The notes: generated from the sequence alone by a model not told the origin. A stretch of 11,988 nucleotides of DNA from Vulcanimicrobiota bacterium (GCA_003133025.1 PKZK01000013.1:1-11988); one strand, 5' to 3'. Shown: positions 3,374-9,958, numbered from the stretch's first letter. Program-made: numbers and translations.

Positions 3374-3982
3374 ATGCATGAATCCGATACCTCGCCGACT
3401 CGCTTCCACGCGCCCGCCGCCGGCGCAACGCCCGAGCGCGCCCTCGAGGACGTCCGGTTGGCGATGCAGCGCGCCGGGTTGCTCGAAGATCCGGCGCCGC
3501 CCGCCGCCCTGCGCTGGATCGAAACGTTCTTGGAGGCCTTCGGCGACCGCCTGAGCGCGCCGGCCGACGCGGTGCCCATCGTGCGCGCTCTCCGCGCCGA
3601 GGCCGCGGTGGTGCCCGCATTGGAACTAGAACGGCTGCGCAACCGCCAGGTGCTGTTCTTCCTCGATACGATCGGACAGTACGTCGATGCGCAGCCCGAA
3701 CTCCGCGGGCTTCCGCTCGAGCACGACCTGCGCGAGATCGCCGCCGAGTTCGGCATCGAGCCCGCCGCCGCGGCGGCGGCGCTACGCATGGCGCTCACCG
3801 GCGAGGCCGATGGGCCGCCGCTCGAATTACTCTTCCCGCTGCTGGGCCACGACCGGATCATGTTGCGCATCGGCGCGATCAGCTCTCATCTGCTCCACGG
3901 TCGAGGCCTCGAGCCGATCCGTTACGGTCCCGACGGCAAGCCCTTCGAAACCCTCGCGGGAAAGAAGCCCGAACGACCATGA
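3374..3982 (+). CDS. Stand-alone protein resembling the C-terminal anticodon-binding domain of glutamyl-tRNA synthetase (no catalytic domain)
   Basis: LREIAAEFGI...LRMALTGEADGPPLELLFPLLGHDRIMLRI matches the GluRS C-terminal LRxALTG...GPxL...LLG...RL pattern. No HIGH or KMSKS motif. It occupies the ispF-gltX-cysE slot and overlaps cysE by ATGA. Confidence 0.75.
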   Translation: MHESDTSPTRFHAPAAGATPERALEDVRLAMQRAGLLEDPAPPAALRWIETFLEAFGDRLSAPADAVPIVRALRAEAAVVPALELERLRNRQVLFFLDTIGQYVDAQPELRGLPLEHDLREIAAEFGIEPAAAAAALRMALTGEADGPPLELLFPLLGHDRIMLRIGAISSHLLHGRGLEPIRYGPDGKPFETLAGKKPERP

Positions 3983-4677: not shown

Positions 4678-6217
4678 GCGGCCGGGCGCATTGCGCCTCT
4701 TCAACACCCGCACCCGTTCGGTCGAACCGTTCGCGCCGCTCCGCGACGGCCGGGTGCGCATCTACGTCTGCGGCTTGACGCCCTCGGCCGAAGCGCACAT
4801 CGGGCACGCGCGCTCGTTCCTGTTCTTCGACGTGCTGCGCCGGTATCTGGTGCATTTGGGCTATCGCGTCGACCTCGTGCGCAACGTGACCGACATCGAC
4901 GATCGCAGCATCGAGGCCGCCCGGCAGAGCGGCGGCGACTGGCGCGAGATCGTCGGCGGATATTACGCTTCGTTTCAGCGTTCGATGCGTCGGCTGCACG
5001 TGCTCGATCCCGATCACGAGCCGCACGCCACGGCGTACGTGCCCCAGATCCTCGAGATGATCGAGGAACTCGTCGCGACGGGCCACGCCTACGTGGTGGA
5101 GGACGGCGTCTATTTTCGGGTGCGCTCGTTCCCGCGCTACGGTGCGCTCTCCGGCCGCAACCTGGACGAACTGCTCATCGGTGCGCGCATCGCGCCCGGT
5201 GAAGGCAAGGACGATCCGCTGGATTTCGCGCTGTGGAAGTTCGTGAAGCCGGGCGAACCGTCGTGGCCGTCGCCCTGGGGACCGGGACGGCCCGGTTGGC
5301 ACATCGAGTGCTCGGCAATGGCCCGCGAGCTGCTCGGGGAGCCGTTCGACATCCACGGCGGCGGCTACGATCTGATCTTCCCGCATCACGAGAACGAGAT
5401 CGCGCAGAGCGAGTCGCTCTTGCCCGCGCCGCCGATGGCCAACGTGTGGATGCACGGCGGCCTGCTGCTCTTCGACGGGCGCAAGATGTCGAAGTCGCTG
5501 GGCAACTTCGAGCCGCTCTCCGCGCTGCTCGATCGTCACGAGCCGCAAGCGATCCGGCTCCTTTTCTTGCAGACCGGCTACCGCAAGCCGATGAACTTCA
5601 CCGAAGACTCGATCGACGGCGCGACGACGGCACTGCGCCGGTTGCTCGCGGCCTACGACGCATTCCGCGCGGTGCCCGCAGGAGAGGCCGAGGGCGATCC
5701 GCAGGGACTGATCGACGAGTTCGCCCCGCGCTTCTTCGCGGCGCTCGACGACGACGTTAACACCTCGGGCGCGATGTCGGTGCTCTTCGAACTCGCCGCC
5801 GCGCAAAACCGCGTGATCGCGGGCGGAGCCGCATCGGCGGCGGCAGCCTTCATGCATCAAGCGATGGATCTGCTCGGCATCTCGCCCGTGCAGCGCAGCG
5901 CGCCCATCGAGGCGGCGGCGACCGTCAGCAGTTCCTTCCAGGTCGGCGGCGCCGACTACGTGGTCGAGGCGCCGCAAGACGTCGACGCGGTGCTCTCCGA
6001 CGCCGCCTTCGCGCGCTTGCGCGAGGCGCTCGACGGCGCGGTCGAACTCGACGGCGAGCCGAAGGCGCAGGCTGTGGAGTTGGTGATCGTAGCCCGCGCG
6101 CAGGCCAAGTCGGCGAAGGATTTCGCGCGCGCCGACCGGCTGCGCGACGCATTGAAGGCCGCGGGCATCGCCGTGACCGACCTCAAGAACGGAGCATCGT
6201 GGACCGTCGCAGGCTAG
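4664..6217 (+). CDS. cysS: Cysteine--tRNA ligase
   Basis: Motifs YVCG...[69 protein letters not shown] and ALDDDVNT, plus the C-terminal [13 protein letters not shown]. Confidence 0.96.
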
Positions 6218-6993
6218 GCTCGAGACGTCCTCCGCACCGCAAAGAGTCGCTCGACCTCGACGACATCGTTTACGGCGTCCACGCGGTCGAGGAAGCTCTG
6301 GCCGGAAAAGAAGAACTCAAGCGCATCCACGTCGGCGACGAACGCAAACGCGATCCGGCCTTGCGCAAGCTACTCGACGGCGCGCGCGAAGCGGCCGTGC
6401 CCGTGCGCTTCGAGAACCGGTCGTTCTTCGCGCAGTTCCCGTATCGCGCGCATCAGAGCGTCGTGGCCTTCGGCACGCCCTTCGACTACGTCACCTTGGA
6501 AGAAACGCTGAATCTGAAGGCGCCCGGCGGACGCCTCTACGTCGTGCTCGACCACATCACCGATCCGCACAACGCCGGCGCGATTCTCCGTTCCGCCGAG
6601 TGTGCGGGCGCGACCGCGGCGATCATGCCCGAGCGTCGCGCCGCCGGCGTGAACGCGACCGTGCGCAAGTCGGCGGCGGGCGCCACCGCGTATCTGCCGG
6701 TGGCCCGCGTCGCCAACGTGGCCGGCGCGCTGCGCGTGATGAAGAAGGCGGGCGTCTGGATTGCCGGCTCGGCGCTCTCGGACGAAGCCCAGGATTACTC
6801 CGCCGCCGACTTTCGGCGCGACGTGGCGATCGTGATCGGCGCCGAAGGTACCGGCATCTCGCAGGTCGTGCGCAAGGAGTGCGACTATCTCGTGCGCATC
6901 CCGCACTTCGGCAAGATCGAGTCGCTCAACGCGTCGGTCGCCGCAGGGATTTTGCTCTTCGAAGCCCGCCGCCAGCGCGCGACGGCCGGCTAG
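6199..6993 (+). CDS. rlmB: 23S rRNA (G2251) 2'-O-methyltransferase, TrmH/SpoU family
   Basis: Motifs VYGVHAVEEAL, LDHITDPHNAGAILRSA, KSAAGA, IGAEGTGIS and IPHFGKIESLNASVAAGILLFE. GTG start follows GGAG (6191-6194); the exact start is uncertain. Confidence 0.9.
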   Translation: MDRRRLGSRRPPHRKESLDLDDIVYGVHAVEEALAGKEELKRIHVGDERKRDPALRKLLDGAREAAVPVRFENRSFFAQFPYRAHQSVVAFGTPFDYVTLEETLNLKAPGGRLYVVLDHITDPHNAGAILRSAECAGATAAIMPERRAAGVNATVRKSAAGATAYLPVARVANVAGALRVMKKAGVWIAGSALSDEAQDYSAADFRRDVAIVIGAEGTGISQVVRKECDYLVRIPHFGKIESLNASVAAGILLFEARRQRATAG

Positions 6994-7003
6994 ATCTTTC
7001 GAA

Positions 7004-7945
7004 CTAGCCCTTCAACGGCGTTCGGCTGCGCCGGTACTGCGGCACGGTCGAGGCCTTGACGAATTCGACGAAGCGTTTGGCGAGCGGCGAGAGCGCGCGT
7101 TCTTTGAGCGTGACGAGCGAAAACTGGCGCCGCAGGTCGACGTTGCGGATGTCCACGACGTGCAGGCGGCCCTCGCGCACGCCGCGTTCGACGACGAGCC
7201 AGGATAGGAAGGCGATGCCCAAGCCCGCTTCGACCGCTCGCGCCACGCCCTCGAGGCTCGGCACGGTCAGGTGCGTGGCCAACTCGACGCCGTGAGCGGC
7301 CAATTCGCGATCGGCCACGATGCGCGTCGCCGAACTCGCTTCACGTGCGACGAGGCGTTCGTCGGCGAGATCCTCGACGCGGATCGAGCGCCGTTGTGAG
7401 AAGCGGTGGCCTTCGGCCGGAACGACGAGCACCAGGTGGTCTTCGCCGAAAGGGATCGTTTCGAAGGCTTCGTCTTCGTCGGAGATCGTGCCGACCGCGA
7501 GCGCGACGTTGATGCGGCGCGACTTGAGGTAGCGCCCGAGGCGCGCGGCGTTGGCGAAATGAACGCTGATCTTCGCGTCGGGATGCGCCGCTTCGAATCG
7601 CGCGAGCAGCGGAGCCAGTGCGTAGCTGCCGATCGTCAAGGTCGCGCCGATATCGAGACTGCCCGCACGCGCCGAGATGAATTCGCTCATCTCGCGTTCG
7701 AGCGCCGCGACGTCGTCGAGCACCGCGCGCGAACGATCGGCGAGAAAACGTCCGGCATCGGTGAGGATCGGCCGGCGCTTCACGACTTCGATCAACGGCA
7801 ACCCGAAGTGGTCCGACAAAGAACGCACCTGAAGCGCGACGGCCGGTGGAGTCAAGCCGAACTCCTCGGCCGTTCTTGCAAACGTCCCGAGCTCGGAGAG
7901 CCGCACGAACGTGTGCAGTTGCGCGAGGGTCAACGACGCCGCCAT
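7004..7945 (-). CDS. LysR-family transcriptional regulator (CysL/CbbR-like substrate-binding domain)
   Basis: N-terminal HTH TLAQLHTFVRLSELGTFARTAEEFGLTPPAVALQVRSL, followed by LTDAGR, IGATLTIGSYAL, REASSATR (REPGSGTR-like), VEAGLGIAFLS and LSPLAKRFVEF. Confidence 0.9.
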   Translation of the reverse strand: MAASLTLAQLHTFVRLSELGTFARTAEEFGLTPPAVALQVRSLSDHFGLPLIEVVKRRPILTDAGRFLADRSRAVLDDVAALEREMSEFISARAGSLDIGATLTIGSYALAPLLARFEAAHPDAKISVHFANAARLGRYLKSRRINVALAVGTISDEDEAFETIPFGEDHLVLVVPAEGHRFSQRRSIRVEDLADERLVAREASSATRIVADRELAAHGVELATHLTVPSLEGVARAVEAGLGIAFLSWLVVERGVREGRLHVVDIRNVDLRRQFSLVTLKERALSPLAKRFVEFVKASTVPQYRRSRTPLKG

Positions 7946-7990
7946 CTAGCTCACCGCGTTCGTGGATTCGCCGATGTAACCATGCCTTGG

Positions 7991-8015
7991 AAAACTTGAC
8001 ATGAAGCAAAGTTTT
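7991..8015. promoter_or_regulatory. Inverted repeat AAAACTT-N11-AAGTTTT, candidate LysR operator (T-N11-A)
   Basis: Perfect 7-bp arms at 7991-7997 and 8009-8015 with an 11-nt spacer. It lies 45-70 nt upstream of the LysR start and overlaps the -35 of the divergent promoter. Confidence 0.55.
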
Positions 8016-8023
8016 GGTATACT
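7996..8023 (+). promoter_or_regulatory. Sigma70/SigA-type promoter of the candidate ncRNA
   Basis: TTGACA (7996-8001), 16-nt spacer ending in TGn, TATACT (8018-8023). Near consensus with an extended -10; predicted start about 8030. Confidence 0.8.
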
Positions 8024-8029
8024 CATCTC

Positions 8030-8268
8030 ATCCTCGGTGTGTCAAGCTGCTTACACGTAAAGCCACGGTGCGTAGGGGCGCCGTTGGAGGATCGTTCCGA
8101 GCCGGATCTACAGCCGGAGCCCGGCTCGGGTCGAAACGGCCGGTGGAGGACCCCATGCAGGCGTGCTCGTTTCCGCACGGCGGGCACCCCGAAATAGGAC
8201 ATCCTCCGCCGGCTCGTTGGTTTTTCCTAAGACAGGCCGGGGGGCGGGGACTCCCCCCGGCCTCTTTT
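8030..8268 (+). ncRNA. Candidate structured non-coding RNA (~235 nt), family not recognised
   Basis: Bounded by a consensus promoter and an intrinsic terminator, with no credible self-contained ORF. Visible helices: 8097-8105/8121-8129, 8163-8171/8179-8187, 8069-8078/8151-8159 and 8086-8092/8201-8207. Confidence 0.6.
8234..8268 (+). terminator. Rho-independent terminator
   Basis: 11-bp stem AGGCCGGGGGG (8234-8244) / CCCCCCGGCCT (8253-8263), 8-nt loop, followed by CTTTTAT. Confidence 0.8.
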
Positions 8269-8283
8269 ATCAGCCCTTTCACC

Positions 8284-8312
8284 TTGACGCTCTTGCAGGA
8301 CCCTCCTATACT
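8284..8312 (+). promoter_or_regulatory. Sigma70/SigA-type promoter of sigH
   Basis: TTGACG (8284-8289), 17-nt spacer, TATACT (8307-8312). GGAG at 8375-8378 precedes the ATG at 8390. Confidence 0.8.
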
Positions 8313-8389
8313 AGTCGGGATGCGAACGGCTCGACGGGCTCCGGCCCGCGATTTCGCTCGCCTCGGGACCTATTGGAGAAACGACGAGT

Positions 8390-9037
8390 ATGGGGGTTGC
8401 GCAGAGCGCGCCCGACGCGCTCGAGTACCACGAGCGCGCCGACGAAGATCTGGTCTCCGCCGCTAAGAGCGGGGACAACCTTGCCATGGAGTTCCTGCTC
8501 AACAAGTACAAGAACTTCGTGCGCATAAAGGCCAAGAGCTACTTCTTGATCGGAGCCGATCGCGAAGACATCATCCAAGAAGGCATGATCGGGCTCTACA
8601 AGGCCGTCCGCGACTTCAAAGCCGACAAACTTTCGAGCTTTCGGGCTTTCGCCGAGCTGTGTATCACCCGCCAGATCATCACGGCGATCAAGACCGCGAC
8701 GCGCCAGAAGCACATCCCGCTCAACCAGTACATCTCGCTGAACAAGCCGATCTACGATGAGGACAGTGAGCGGACGCTGCTCGACGTGATGGCCTCCCAG
8801 AAGACTTCTGATCCCGAGGAGTTGGTGATCAACCAAGAAGTCTCCGAGGACATCAAGGAGCGGATCCAAGAGAACCTCTCCGATTTGGAATCCCAGGTTC
8901 TGCTTTCTTACCTCGAGGGTAAGAGCTACCAGGAGATGGCCCGGGATCTCAACCGCCACGTCAAGTCGATCGACAACGCGCTGCAACGCGTCAAGCGGAA
9001 GATCGAGAAGAACTTGGCCGAGATCGAGCTGCCCTAG
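8390..9037 (+). CDS. sigH: RNA polymerase sigma factor SigH (Spo0H family)
   Basis: KYKNFVRIKAKSYFLIGADREDIIQEGMIGLYKAVRDF, SFRAFAELCITRQIITAIKTATRQKHIPLN and KSIDNALQRVKRK are hallmark SigH sequences. Its position downstream of cysS-rlmB is also typical. Confidence 0.95.
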   Translation: MGVAQSAPDALEYHERADEDLVSAAKSGDNLAMEFLLNKYKNFVRIKAKSYFLIGADREDIIQEGMIGLYKAVRDFKADKLSSFRAFAELCITRQIITAIKTATRQKHIPLNQYISLNKPIYDEDSERTLLDVMASQKTSDPEELVINQEVSEDIKERIQENLSDLESQVLLSYLEGKSYQEMARDLNRHVKSIDNALQRVKRKIEKNLAEIELP

Positions 9038-9434: not shown

Positions 9435-9491
9435 AACATATGAAAGACCAGCGTCGGCCCGCTCTTGCAGGCCCCGCAGGCTGTGAAACCC

Positions 9492-9665
9492 ATGAAGAAC
9501 CTCGTTCCCTTCCCGAAGCGTACCCGTTCGGCCGAGCCCGGCAACGAGGATTTGCGCGCCGCGATAGCCGTCCTCCGGGAAGTCGTGGGTCAACTCAGCG
9601 AGCGCGTCGAAGTGTTAGAGGCTCGCGCCGCGCTCGGCGCGGTCAGCGTCCCGGTCAAGAGCTAA
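9492..9665 (+). CDS. Small hypothetical protein (57 aa) with a coiled-coil-like core
   Basis: MKNLVPFPKR...DLRAAIAVLREVVGQLSERVEVLEARAAL shows a heptad pattern and GC-rich third positions. The SD is weak. Confidence 0.6.
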   Translation: MKNLVPFPKRTRSAEPGNEDLRAAIAVLREVVGQLSERVEVLEARAALGAVSVPVKS

Positions 9666-9736
9666 GACCGAGCCGTTCGGGCACTGCGTCCGGCGTTTGC
9701 CGCGGCGCTCTCGGTTTTCGACCGAAGGAAACGCAC

Positions 9737-9958
9737 ATGCGGAAAATTGCAGACAAGTTCCAAAAACGCGACGCGACGATCGTGCTCAAGGGCATGGAGC
9801 GCATCGACCGCTGGATTTCCGAGGTCCAAGAGGACCGCGTGATCACCTATCCGGTCGGCGCTGCGTTGCTCACCCCGTCTGCGCGCCGGTTCCGCGAACC
9901 GGTCCGTTATTCGCAGATGCTCTCGATCGTCGAACTGGACCCGAAGCCGGTCCTTTAG
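9737..9958 (+). CDS. Small hypothetical protein (73 aa), possible Sm/LSm-like beta-barrel
   Basis: AAGGA SD at 9725-9729 and ATG at 9737. Sequence MRKIADKFQKRDATIVLKGMERIDRWISEVQEDRVITY...EPVRYSQMLSIVEL; codon usage matches the neighbouring genes. Confidence 0.7.
   Translation: MRKIADKFQKRDATIVLKGMERIDRWISEVQEDRVITYPVGAALLTPSARRFREPVRYSQMLSIVELDPKPVL

Follow-up and report, generated by a model that had tools for sequence, protein, structure and literature searches.

An uncultured peat bacterium (Vulcanimicrobiota bacterium, GCA_003133025.1 PKZK01000013.1:1-11988) carries, between the gene of a LysR-type transcriptional regulator (start at 7945, minus strand) and sigH (start at 8390), a gap of 444 nt equipped with its own promoter and terminator, and the question raised by this locus is what is transcribed from the gap and under whose control. 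The original prediction, made for the window (the whole stretch of 11,988 nt analysed here), placed in the gap a stand-alone structured RNA of about 235 nt, either novel or a divergent relative of the 6S and Ms1 RNAs, and the coordinates of the gap and of its signals are borne out. The best explanation, to which we assign a probability of about 0.55, is an independently transcribed, non-coding, structured small RNA that functions as a regulatory RNA and is the dedicated local target of the divergent LysR-type regulator.

Genomic setting of the locus

The window contains, in order, a hemN-like gene, PIN-TRAM, ispD, ispF, a short ORF with a GluRS anticodon domain, cysE, cysS, and rlmB (6199-6993), followed 3' of rlmB by the gene of the LysR-type regulator, the gap, sigH, and tRNA-Thr (Table 1). 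The regulator falls below every NCBIfam equivalog cut-off, with the best match at 176.7 bits against a cut-off of 250. SigH is assigned at the equivalog level and is found in 39 of 40 relatives, with full-length matches that are 88-98% identical across three families of the class. The four-fold degenerate sites of its gene, in contrast, reach no more than 73% identity even with the nearest contig, and by this comparison SigH is an unusually constrained sigma factor.

Two further ORFs of the window are reported as observations in their own right. The 202-aa ORF at 3374-3982, between ispF and cysE, occupies the place of gltX in Bacillota-like gene orders; its single Pfam match is to the GluRS-type anticodon-binding domain (Anticodon_2), with no catalytic domain and no NCBIfam match, and it may represent either a domain encoded on its own or a gltX gene that has been truncated. 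The 172-aa ORF at 9440-9958, after tRNA-Thr, has no match in Pfam or NCBIfam and lies in a region with 79% DNA identity to the metagenome contig L055.

This contig, retrieved by a metagenome scan with the LysR protein, is the one homologue found for the locus; its LysR is 94% identical and its cysS-rlmB-lysR-RNA-sigH order is collinear at 83.9% DNA identity. In other relatives, the arrangement differs. The distance from the end of rlmB to the start of sigH is 113-218 nt in 23 of 29 loci, a count that includes four unpublished genomes (G008, G018, G020, and G036), and in these 23 loci the sigH promoter lies directly 3' of rlmB; of the remaining loci, four have another gene in between and two are too short to tell. 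Because the same distance is 1,396 nt in this genome, the LysR gene and the RNA unit are, on this comparison, an insertion of about 1.25 kb between rlmB and the ancestral sigH promoter. The insertion is bounded on the left by the convergent ends of rlmB and the LysR gene, whose stop codons are 10 nt apart (6993-7004).

Table 1. Features of the rlmB-sigH region (positions in the window) and their identity to the homologous contig L055.
Feature	Position	Strand	Description	Identity to L055
LysR-type transcriptional regulator, 313 aa	7004-7945	minus, divergent from the RNA gene	Pfam HTH_1 and LysR_substrate	
Four-fold degenerate sites, lysR				111/182
lysR-proximal spacer				30/45
Candidate LysR operator	7991-8015		perfect 7-bp dyad AAAACTT-N11-AAGTTTT (T-N11-A type) over the -35 box and spacer of the RNA promoter	
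RNA promoter	7996-8023	plus	TTGACA-16-(TG)-TATACT, 11/12 consensus positions; same hexamers, spacing, and TG in L055	
RNA promoter and dyad				34/39
Possible lysR promoter	8016-8045	minus	TTGACA-18-TATACC; -10 region in common with the RNA promoter; inferred candidate	
RNA domain I	8030-8092	plus	closing helix AUCCUC/GGAGGAU around two hairpins (loops AAGCUGC and GUAGGG); RNAalifold	54/63
RNA domain II	8092-8134	plus	hairpin with apical loop ACAGCC; RNAalifold	36/42
RNA domain III	8135-8218	plus	long hairpin with conserved apex (8163-8187), then the U-run	52/84 (apex 22/25)
U-run GGUUUUUC	8219-8226	plus	probable first 3' end of the RNA; counterpart GGUUUGUUUG at the same place in L055	
Strong intrinsic terminator	8234-8263, to ~8270 with tail	plus	11 pairs, 10 of them G-C, then CUUUUAU	
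Segment from the U-run to the sigH promoter	8219-8283			27/65
sigH promoter	8284-8312	plus	TTGACG-17-TATACT, 10/12 consensus positions; conserved in relatives of two families	33/36
sigH 5' leader	8320-8389	plus	conserved nested hairpin	67/71 aligned columns
sigH, 215 aa	8390-9037	plus	NCBIfam SigH equivalog NF006148, 362.3 bits against a cut-off of 208	
Four-fold degenerate sites, sigH				64/88

Transcription signals

The two promoters and the 11-bp terminator of the original prediction are all recovered by a scan, and the gap holds two sigma-70-type promoter-like sites, against 0.1 +/- 0.4 in shuffled sequences. From the first of these promoters, the RNA would start near 8030. The second is the ancestral promoter of sigH, and the RNA unit is therefore not simply a sigH leader, in agreement with the earlier argument that a separate promoter frees the unit from such a role: in the relatives, the conserved promoter serves sigH alone.

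Two positions are candidates for the 3' end, namely the U-run at about 8225, which would give an RNA of about 195 nt, and the strong terminator at about 8268, which would give about 240 nt. The strong terminator is not conserved in L055, where few positions of the corresponding region are identical (Table 1) and the scan finds no terminator-like site. Because this second terminator is not kept, the end of the conserved RNA is placed at the U-run, and the RNA probably ends at 8221-8225, after its long hairpin; the strong terminator is probably a genome-specific back-stop to this earlier end. One RNA-library contig ends at 8227, beside the U-run.

On the opposite strand, a possible lysR promoter reads TTCACA-18-TATAAC in L055. 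In the window, its -10 box lacks the final T, and it was not flagged by the promoter scan.

A candidate LysR operator at the RNA promoter

The RNA gene is divergent from the LysR gene across a shared intergenic region, and the same layout is present in L055. The RNA promoter carries the T-N11-A dyad that characterizes the binding box of LysR-type regulators, and the dyad at 7991-8015 is thus a candidate operator. The dyad occurs once in the window, and no match is found in any of 200 shuffles; even with one mismatch allowed, the assembly contains no second site. The L055 copy retains both arms and differs at two bases of the spacer. The divergent LysR gene and this dyad, which together are the most informative neighbour of the RNA, had not been drawn upon in the original prediction. 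For LysR-type regulators, the standard layout is described as a T-N11-A dyad within a bidirectional promoter region that separates the regulator gene from its divergent target (PMC11495319). The gene gcvB is divergent from the gene of its activator, gcvA (PMC1557403), and oxyS is divergent from oxyR, with OxyR sites in the region between them (PMC8825220). The predicted start of the RNA lies about 27 bp downstream of the dyad centre, a position that suits repression as well as activation.

Conservation and non-coding status

Identity to L055 is 86-88% over the promoter, the dyad, and the 5' two thirds of the RNA, as opposed to 61-73% at the four-fold degenerate sites of the flanking genes. Taken together, domains I and II (90/105 identical positions) exceed in conservation both the four-fold sites (Fisher p 5e-5) and the spacers on either side (p 8e-8). 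In this alignment, the 5' two thirds of the RNA are conserved above the neutral rate; this conservation, like the covariation given below, is measured on two sequences only.

The conserved part differs from L055 by indels of 1, 1, 4, and 2 nt, which break every frame; L055 lacks both the ATG at 8155 and the GGAGGA in front of it, and the registers of the long open frames differ between the copies. Because of these three features, the region is, as far as the two copies tell, non-coding, and the earlier preference for a non-coding RNA over an ORF starting at 8155 is upheld. A small protein, encoded by the ORF from ATG 8155 or by the 150-aa frame 8014-8466, is scarcely credible even though a GGAGGA lies 4 nt before that ATG and long open frames are present on both strands, since in addition to the changes in L055 there is no Pfam match and the 8155 frame would run through the terminator and the conserved sigH promoter.

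Structure of the RNA

The plus strand of the segment 8030-8275 folds at -126.9 kcal/mol (z -4.48), and none of 200 shuffles is as good, in line with the structured RNA body of the original prediction; the minus strand of the same segment reaches a z of only -2.89. For the shorter segment 8030-8226, the z is -3.79, and for the L055 copy it is -4.70. The window copy and L055, each folded alone from the predicted start, adopt the same three domains.

The RNAalifold consensus of the two copies comprises 56 pairs, of which 45 are invariant, seven have one-sided changes, four have two-sided changes, and none is broken; all four compensatory changes are located in domain III, and the observed covariation, counted on a consensus that was derived from the same two sequences, is reached by 39 of 500 shuffles. 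At six consensus pairs, both copies have G-U, as is compatible with the plus strand only. When the window's own minimum free energy (MFE) structure is taken instead, 23 of its pairs are changed in L055, with 12 kept and 11 broken or gapped, and the stand-alone MFE structures of the two copies (A2 stretch) have 31 pairs in common, out of 71 and 68.

Five helices had been proposed for this RNA, two of which were seen to cross. Compared with the single homologue L055, two survive, namely CCGAGCCGG/CCGGCTCGG, which is kept with one G.A mismatch, and GTGCTCGTT/GGCGGGCAC, in which one pair has changed in a compensatory manner (U-A to C-G) and another on one side. The other three fail, including both members of the crossing pair. 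GTCG-AAA-CGGC (8130-8140) is not kept; in TGCGTAGGGG/CCCCATGCA, the 3' arm is not conserved, and GUAGGG is instead a conserved hairpin loop; and GGAGGAT (8086-8092), formerly paired with 8201-8207, has as its consensus partner the 5' end of the RNA, AUCCUC (8030-8035), the older pairing being weakly possible in L055. Because the crossing helices are not kept in L055, the pseudoknot or conformational switch that had been deduced from them is unsupported.

Distribution and expression

An Rfam 15 scan of the window at the gathering level returns three tRNAs only. A permissive scan of 7940-8400 (4227 models, E <= 10) returns seven chance-level matches, with the best at E 0.23 and scores far below the cut-offs (18.5 bits against 80 for BjrC80; 19 against 37, E 0.31, for SAH, which matches the opposite strand), and no 6S, Ms1, raiA, riboswitch, or T-box model is among them. 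With this check the RNA has no strong match to a known family in Rfam 15, no hallmark of SRP RNA, RNase P RNA, tmRNA, or T-box comes to light in these scans, as had been noticed from the sequence, and the RNA belongs, by the models of Rfam 15, to no described family.

In its own assembly (3.35 Mb, 80% complete), the RNA is single-copy by BLASTN. The same search finds it in none of 40 relatives and, among 400 genomes of the phylum, yields matches of 22-50 nt only, in eight genomes (E 5e-4 to 8e-3), which are judged to be due to chance. A covariance model built from the two sequences (R1) gives four weak hits in 150 genomes of the family (18.6-23.1 bits, with most of the model missing) and, in 150 genomes of the phylum, a single weak hit that is also among the former four. 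Plasmid and phage collections contain nothing similar to the RNA. A scan of genome contigs with the LysR protein finds relatives of 26-49% identity only, which is uninformative, and in 150 genomes of the class, homologues with up to 61% identity are present in 18, where the divergent neighbours are unrelated genes and nothing that resembles the RNA lies beside them. Among the genomes searched, the RNA is thus restricted to a narrow lineage.

Parts of the segment 7900-8420 are contained in 20 public runs from 18 studies of peat, permafrost, moss, and plant metagenomes, six of which are RNA libraries; ten of the DNA runs (X5-X14) contain 72-94% of its sampled words. Four RNA libraries were compared over 7500-8900, and contigs on the RNA are found in three of them, each from a different study; the contigs 8094-8301 and 8046-8258 are exact and 8077-8227 has one mismatch. 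In the fourth library, exact contigs occur only from 8329 onward, i.e., on the sigH leader and gene. The runs were chosen for containing this stretch, and stretches without RNA-library contigs (e.g., 7923-8045) were not counted as evidence on the start site. In one library (X16), a lysR contig has a similar depth (5.6 vs 4.6), and DNA carry-over is possible. Of the discrete transcript of about 235 nt that had been foreseen, three metatranscriptomes give a hint, in contigs that show no strand, ends, or level. Taken with the missing Rfam match, the conserved sigH promoter downstream, and the conservation above neutral of a non-coding sequence, these contigs support the proposal of a novel stand-alone non-coding RNA with its own promoter.

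The sigH leader and its possible pairing with the RNA

The sigH promoter and the leader of about 70 nt that follows it are conserved in two families, and a third family has a different leader. In the aligned leaders, which form a hairpin of about 60 nt (8313-8375 in the window; loci L003-L023), the sequence of the outer helix varies and its pairing stays (GAUGCG/CGCAUC, GAUGUGG/CCACAU, GGUGCGGGCGG/CGCCCCCACC), the internal loops CGAC and GCGAUUU are conserved, and the inner hairpin covaries (GGGC/GCCC, AAGC/GCUU). The same nested hairpin is formed in 17 of 18 leaders of relatives folded alone, with the unpublished genomes left out, and the RNAalifold consensus of 20 rows (including L017, from the unpublished G018) has seven pairs, two of them with compensatory changes. 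The leader has no Rfam match, and this modelled hairpin may be an undescribed cis-regulatory motif.

The segment 8098-8123 of the RNA, which runs from the 5' arm of hairpin II through its loop into the beginning of the 3' arm, has its complement in the leader segment 8335-8360 (inverted repeat I1), within the inner hairpin of the nested structure; a further inverted repeat, I3, is recorded for domain II. The complementarity to the leader includes a perfect stretch of 11 nt (8113-8123/8335-8345) and 21 pairs in all, with G-U pairs counted. A stretch of 11 nt is reached by 18 of 3000 random 73-mers of the genome, and the duplex, at -39.1 or -41.6 kcal/mol, compares with -34.8 +/- 3.6 kcal/mol for random segments, 4.3% of 600 of which are as good; in a G+C-rich genome, this significance is nominal. 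Duplex folding of the whole RNA against the sigH and lysR leaders gives z values of 0.1-0.8 and is uninformative because long G+C-rich duplexes saturate, and windowed tests were used instead.

All three substitutions that L055 has inside the duplex keep the pairing. Specifically, A8100G and U8358C together convert A-U to G-C, and C8120U gives G-U, while A8100G breaks the pair of hairpin II itself. The double change A8100G/U8358C, a single compensatory event, is the strongest hint and suggests that the RNA and the sigH leader may pair. On these grounds, we tentatively propose a lineage-specific circuit in which the ligand-sensing LysR regulator would act through the small RNA on sigma-H, with hairpin II pairing with the sigH leader; we regard this extension as doubtful, and clearly less probable than the existence of the regulated RNA itself.

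Alternative explanations

The complementarity to the sigH leader would serve in cis as well, and this is one of the arguments for reading the unit as a regulated upstream leader of sigH. According to this explanation, the LysR-controlled promoter would provide sigH with a second long 5' UTR, termination at hairpin III and at the strong terminator would be modulated in the manner of an attenuator or a riboswitch, and read-through would add sigH transcripts, the segment 8098-8123 pairing in cis with 8335-8360 and remodelling the conserved hairpin of the leader. The RNA lies upstream of sigH and on the same strand in both genomes, and the contig 8094-8301 runs 31 nt past the strong terminator. 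Moreover, two stretches of nearly the same sequence (repeat D1; 8080-8091 and 8139-8150) are both able to pair with 8201-8213 (repeat I4), as in an attenuator; this layout is nevertheless poorly kept in L055, where 8 of 12 repeat positions are retained and the pairing 8080-8092/8201-8213 is reduced to 4+5 bp, out of register, in a comparison of two sequences. Two tandem terminators close the unit in the window, no known aptamer class matches it (Rfam 15, E <= 10), and the intervening conserved promoter serves sigH alone in the relatives. We consider this explanation unlikely.

Similarly improbable, and to the same extent, is a transcribed relic, namely the 5' remnant of a former target gene of LysR of which the promoter and operator are left, either functionless or on its way to becoming a small RNA. 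In favour of a relic, one insertion brought in both the LysR gene and the RNA, the RNA has a very narrow distribution, and neither its 3' third nor its second terminator is conserved. There is also a precedent, in that small RNAs beside a divergent regulator are proposed, for OxyS and StyR-3, to derive from decayed protein genes (PMC8825220). Nonetheless, the 5' two thirds are conserved well above neutral and helices are kept through compensatory changes. Furthermore, the three frames have no Pfam match and no similarity to the genes divergent from the 18 LysR homologues of the class (best tblastn E 0.57 and blastn E 0.23, with the RNA's own locus, L036, excluded).

A 6S- or Ms1-like RNA that binds RNA polymerase or a sigma factor, as the original prediction had ventured, is very improbable. 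The unit resembles such RNAs in being about 200 nt long, highly structured, and adjacent to a sigma-factor gene. However, no model of these families matches even at E <= 10 (the 6S gathering cut-off being 46.4 bits), the fold consists of three separate domains rather than one long hairpin with a central bubble, and the RNA has no credible match in 150 genomes of the family, yet sigH is present in nearly all relatives; its place beside sigH stems from an insertion that is absent in the relatives searched. The genome, in addition, has another 6S-like locus: the segment G000:C13:18517-18690 (L032) matches the 6S RNA model over its full length at 35.8 bits, against the cut-off of 46.4 (E 1.6e-5), and is probably the divergent 6S RNA of this genome.

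Proposed mechanism and significance

The regulated small RNA thus remains the preferred reading, and it may function as follows. Binding of the LysR regulator would take place at the unique T-N11-A dyad that overlaps the promoter of the RNA, and probably that of lysR as well, and would switch the RNA on or off in response to a ligand. The RNA, in turn, would have a regulatory role, presumably in trans, by analogy with OxyS beside oxyR and GcvB beside gcvA. If the pairing with sigH is included, hairpin II (8098-8123) would pair with the leader hairpin at 8335-8360, in trans or in cis on read-through transcripts, and the pairing would open the structure of the leader and change the stability or the translation of the sigH mRNA.

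In enterobacteria, the combination of a LysR-type regulator with a small RNA is a textbook arrangement; to our knowledge, such pairs are barely documented outside the Proteobacteria, and the small RNAs of uncultured peat bacteria are essentially unknown. The locus would offer a clean and compact example of such a pair, with a single regulator, a unique operator, and a single RNA. If the RNA does pair with the sigH leader, a recently acquired regulator-RNA cassette would have been wired into a very conserved sigma-factor gene; if it does not, the RNA would be another orphan, lineage-specific small RNA of modest general interest.

Comparison with known systems

Leaders that contain riboswitches or attenuators resemble the RNA in that a 5' domain similar to a three-way junction is followed by a hairpin and a U-run, and purine-rich and pyrimidine-rich segments of the RNA could pair alternatively. 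They differ in that the RNA matches no known aptamer class of Rfam 15, has an independent, conserved promoter between itself and the next gene, and keeps the alternative pairing poorly in L055.

The 6S RNA (RF00013) and Ms1 are similar to the RNA in size and in the stability of their structure. 6S RNA forms a single extended hairpin, largely closed, whose big central bubble resembles an open promoter, and Ms1 is an actinobacterial RNA with an Rfam model. Conversely, the RNA at this locus matches neither covariance model, has another architecture, and shows a very narrow distribution.

Closer in organization is the gcvA-gcvB locus of Gammaproteobacteria, where a small RNA of about 200 nt is likewise divergent from a LysR-type regulator, and where GcvA drives gcvB (PMC1557403). 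Nevertheless, the RNA does not match the GcvB family, and its regulator scores 74.3 bits against a GcvA cut-off of 288. GcvB has a G/U-rich single-stranded seed, which has no counterpart here, where most of the conserved bases are paired or located in short loops.

The oxyR-oxyS pair belongs to the Enterobacteriaceae, whereas the RNA occurs in an uncultured peat bacterium of high G+C content whose gene order is Bacillota-like. OxyS measures about 110 nt, and the RNA described here is about twice as long and has no match to OxyS in sequence or in Rfam; the regulator is not an OxyR equivalog either and scores 107.9 bits against an OxyR equivalog cut-off of 329. In both systems, however, the gene of the small RNA is divergent from that of a LysR-type regulator, with the sites of the regulator, here the candidate dyad, in the shared intergenic region, and, like the RNA, oxyS is described as having its own promoter and terminator and as confined to a narrow clade (PMC8825220). 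Because it has no Rfam match to OxyS or GcvB, the RNA is, by sequence, an analogue of these two RNAs rather than a member of either family, and, by analogy of layout, it exemplifies a type of system already described, that of a small RNA gene beside the gene of a LysR-type regulator.
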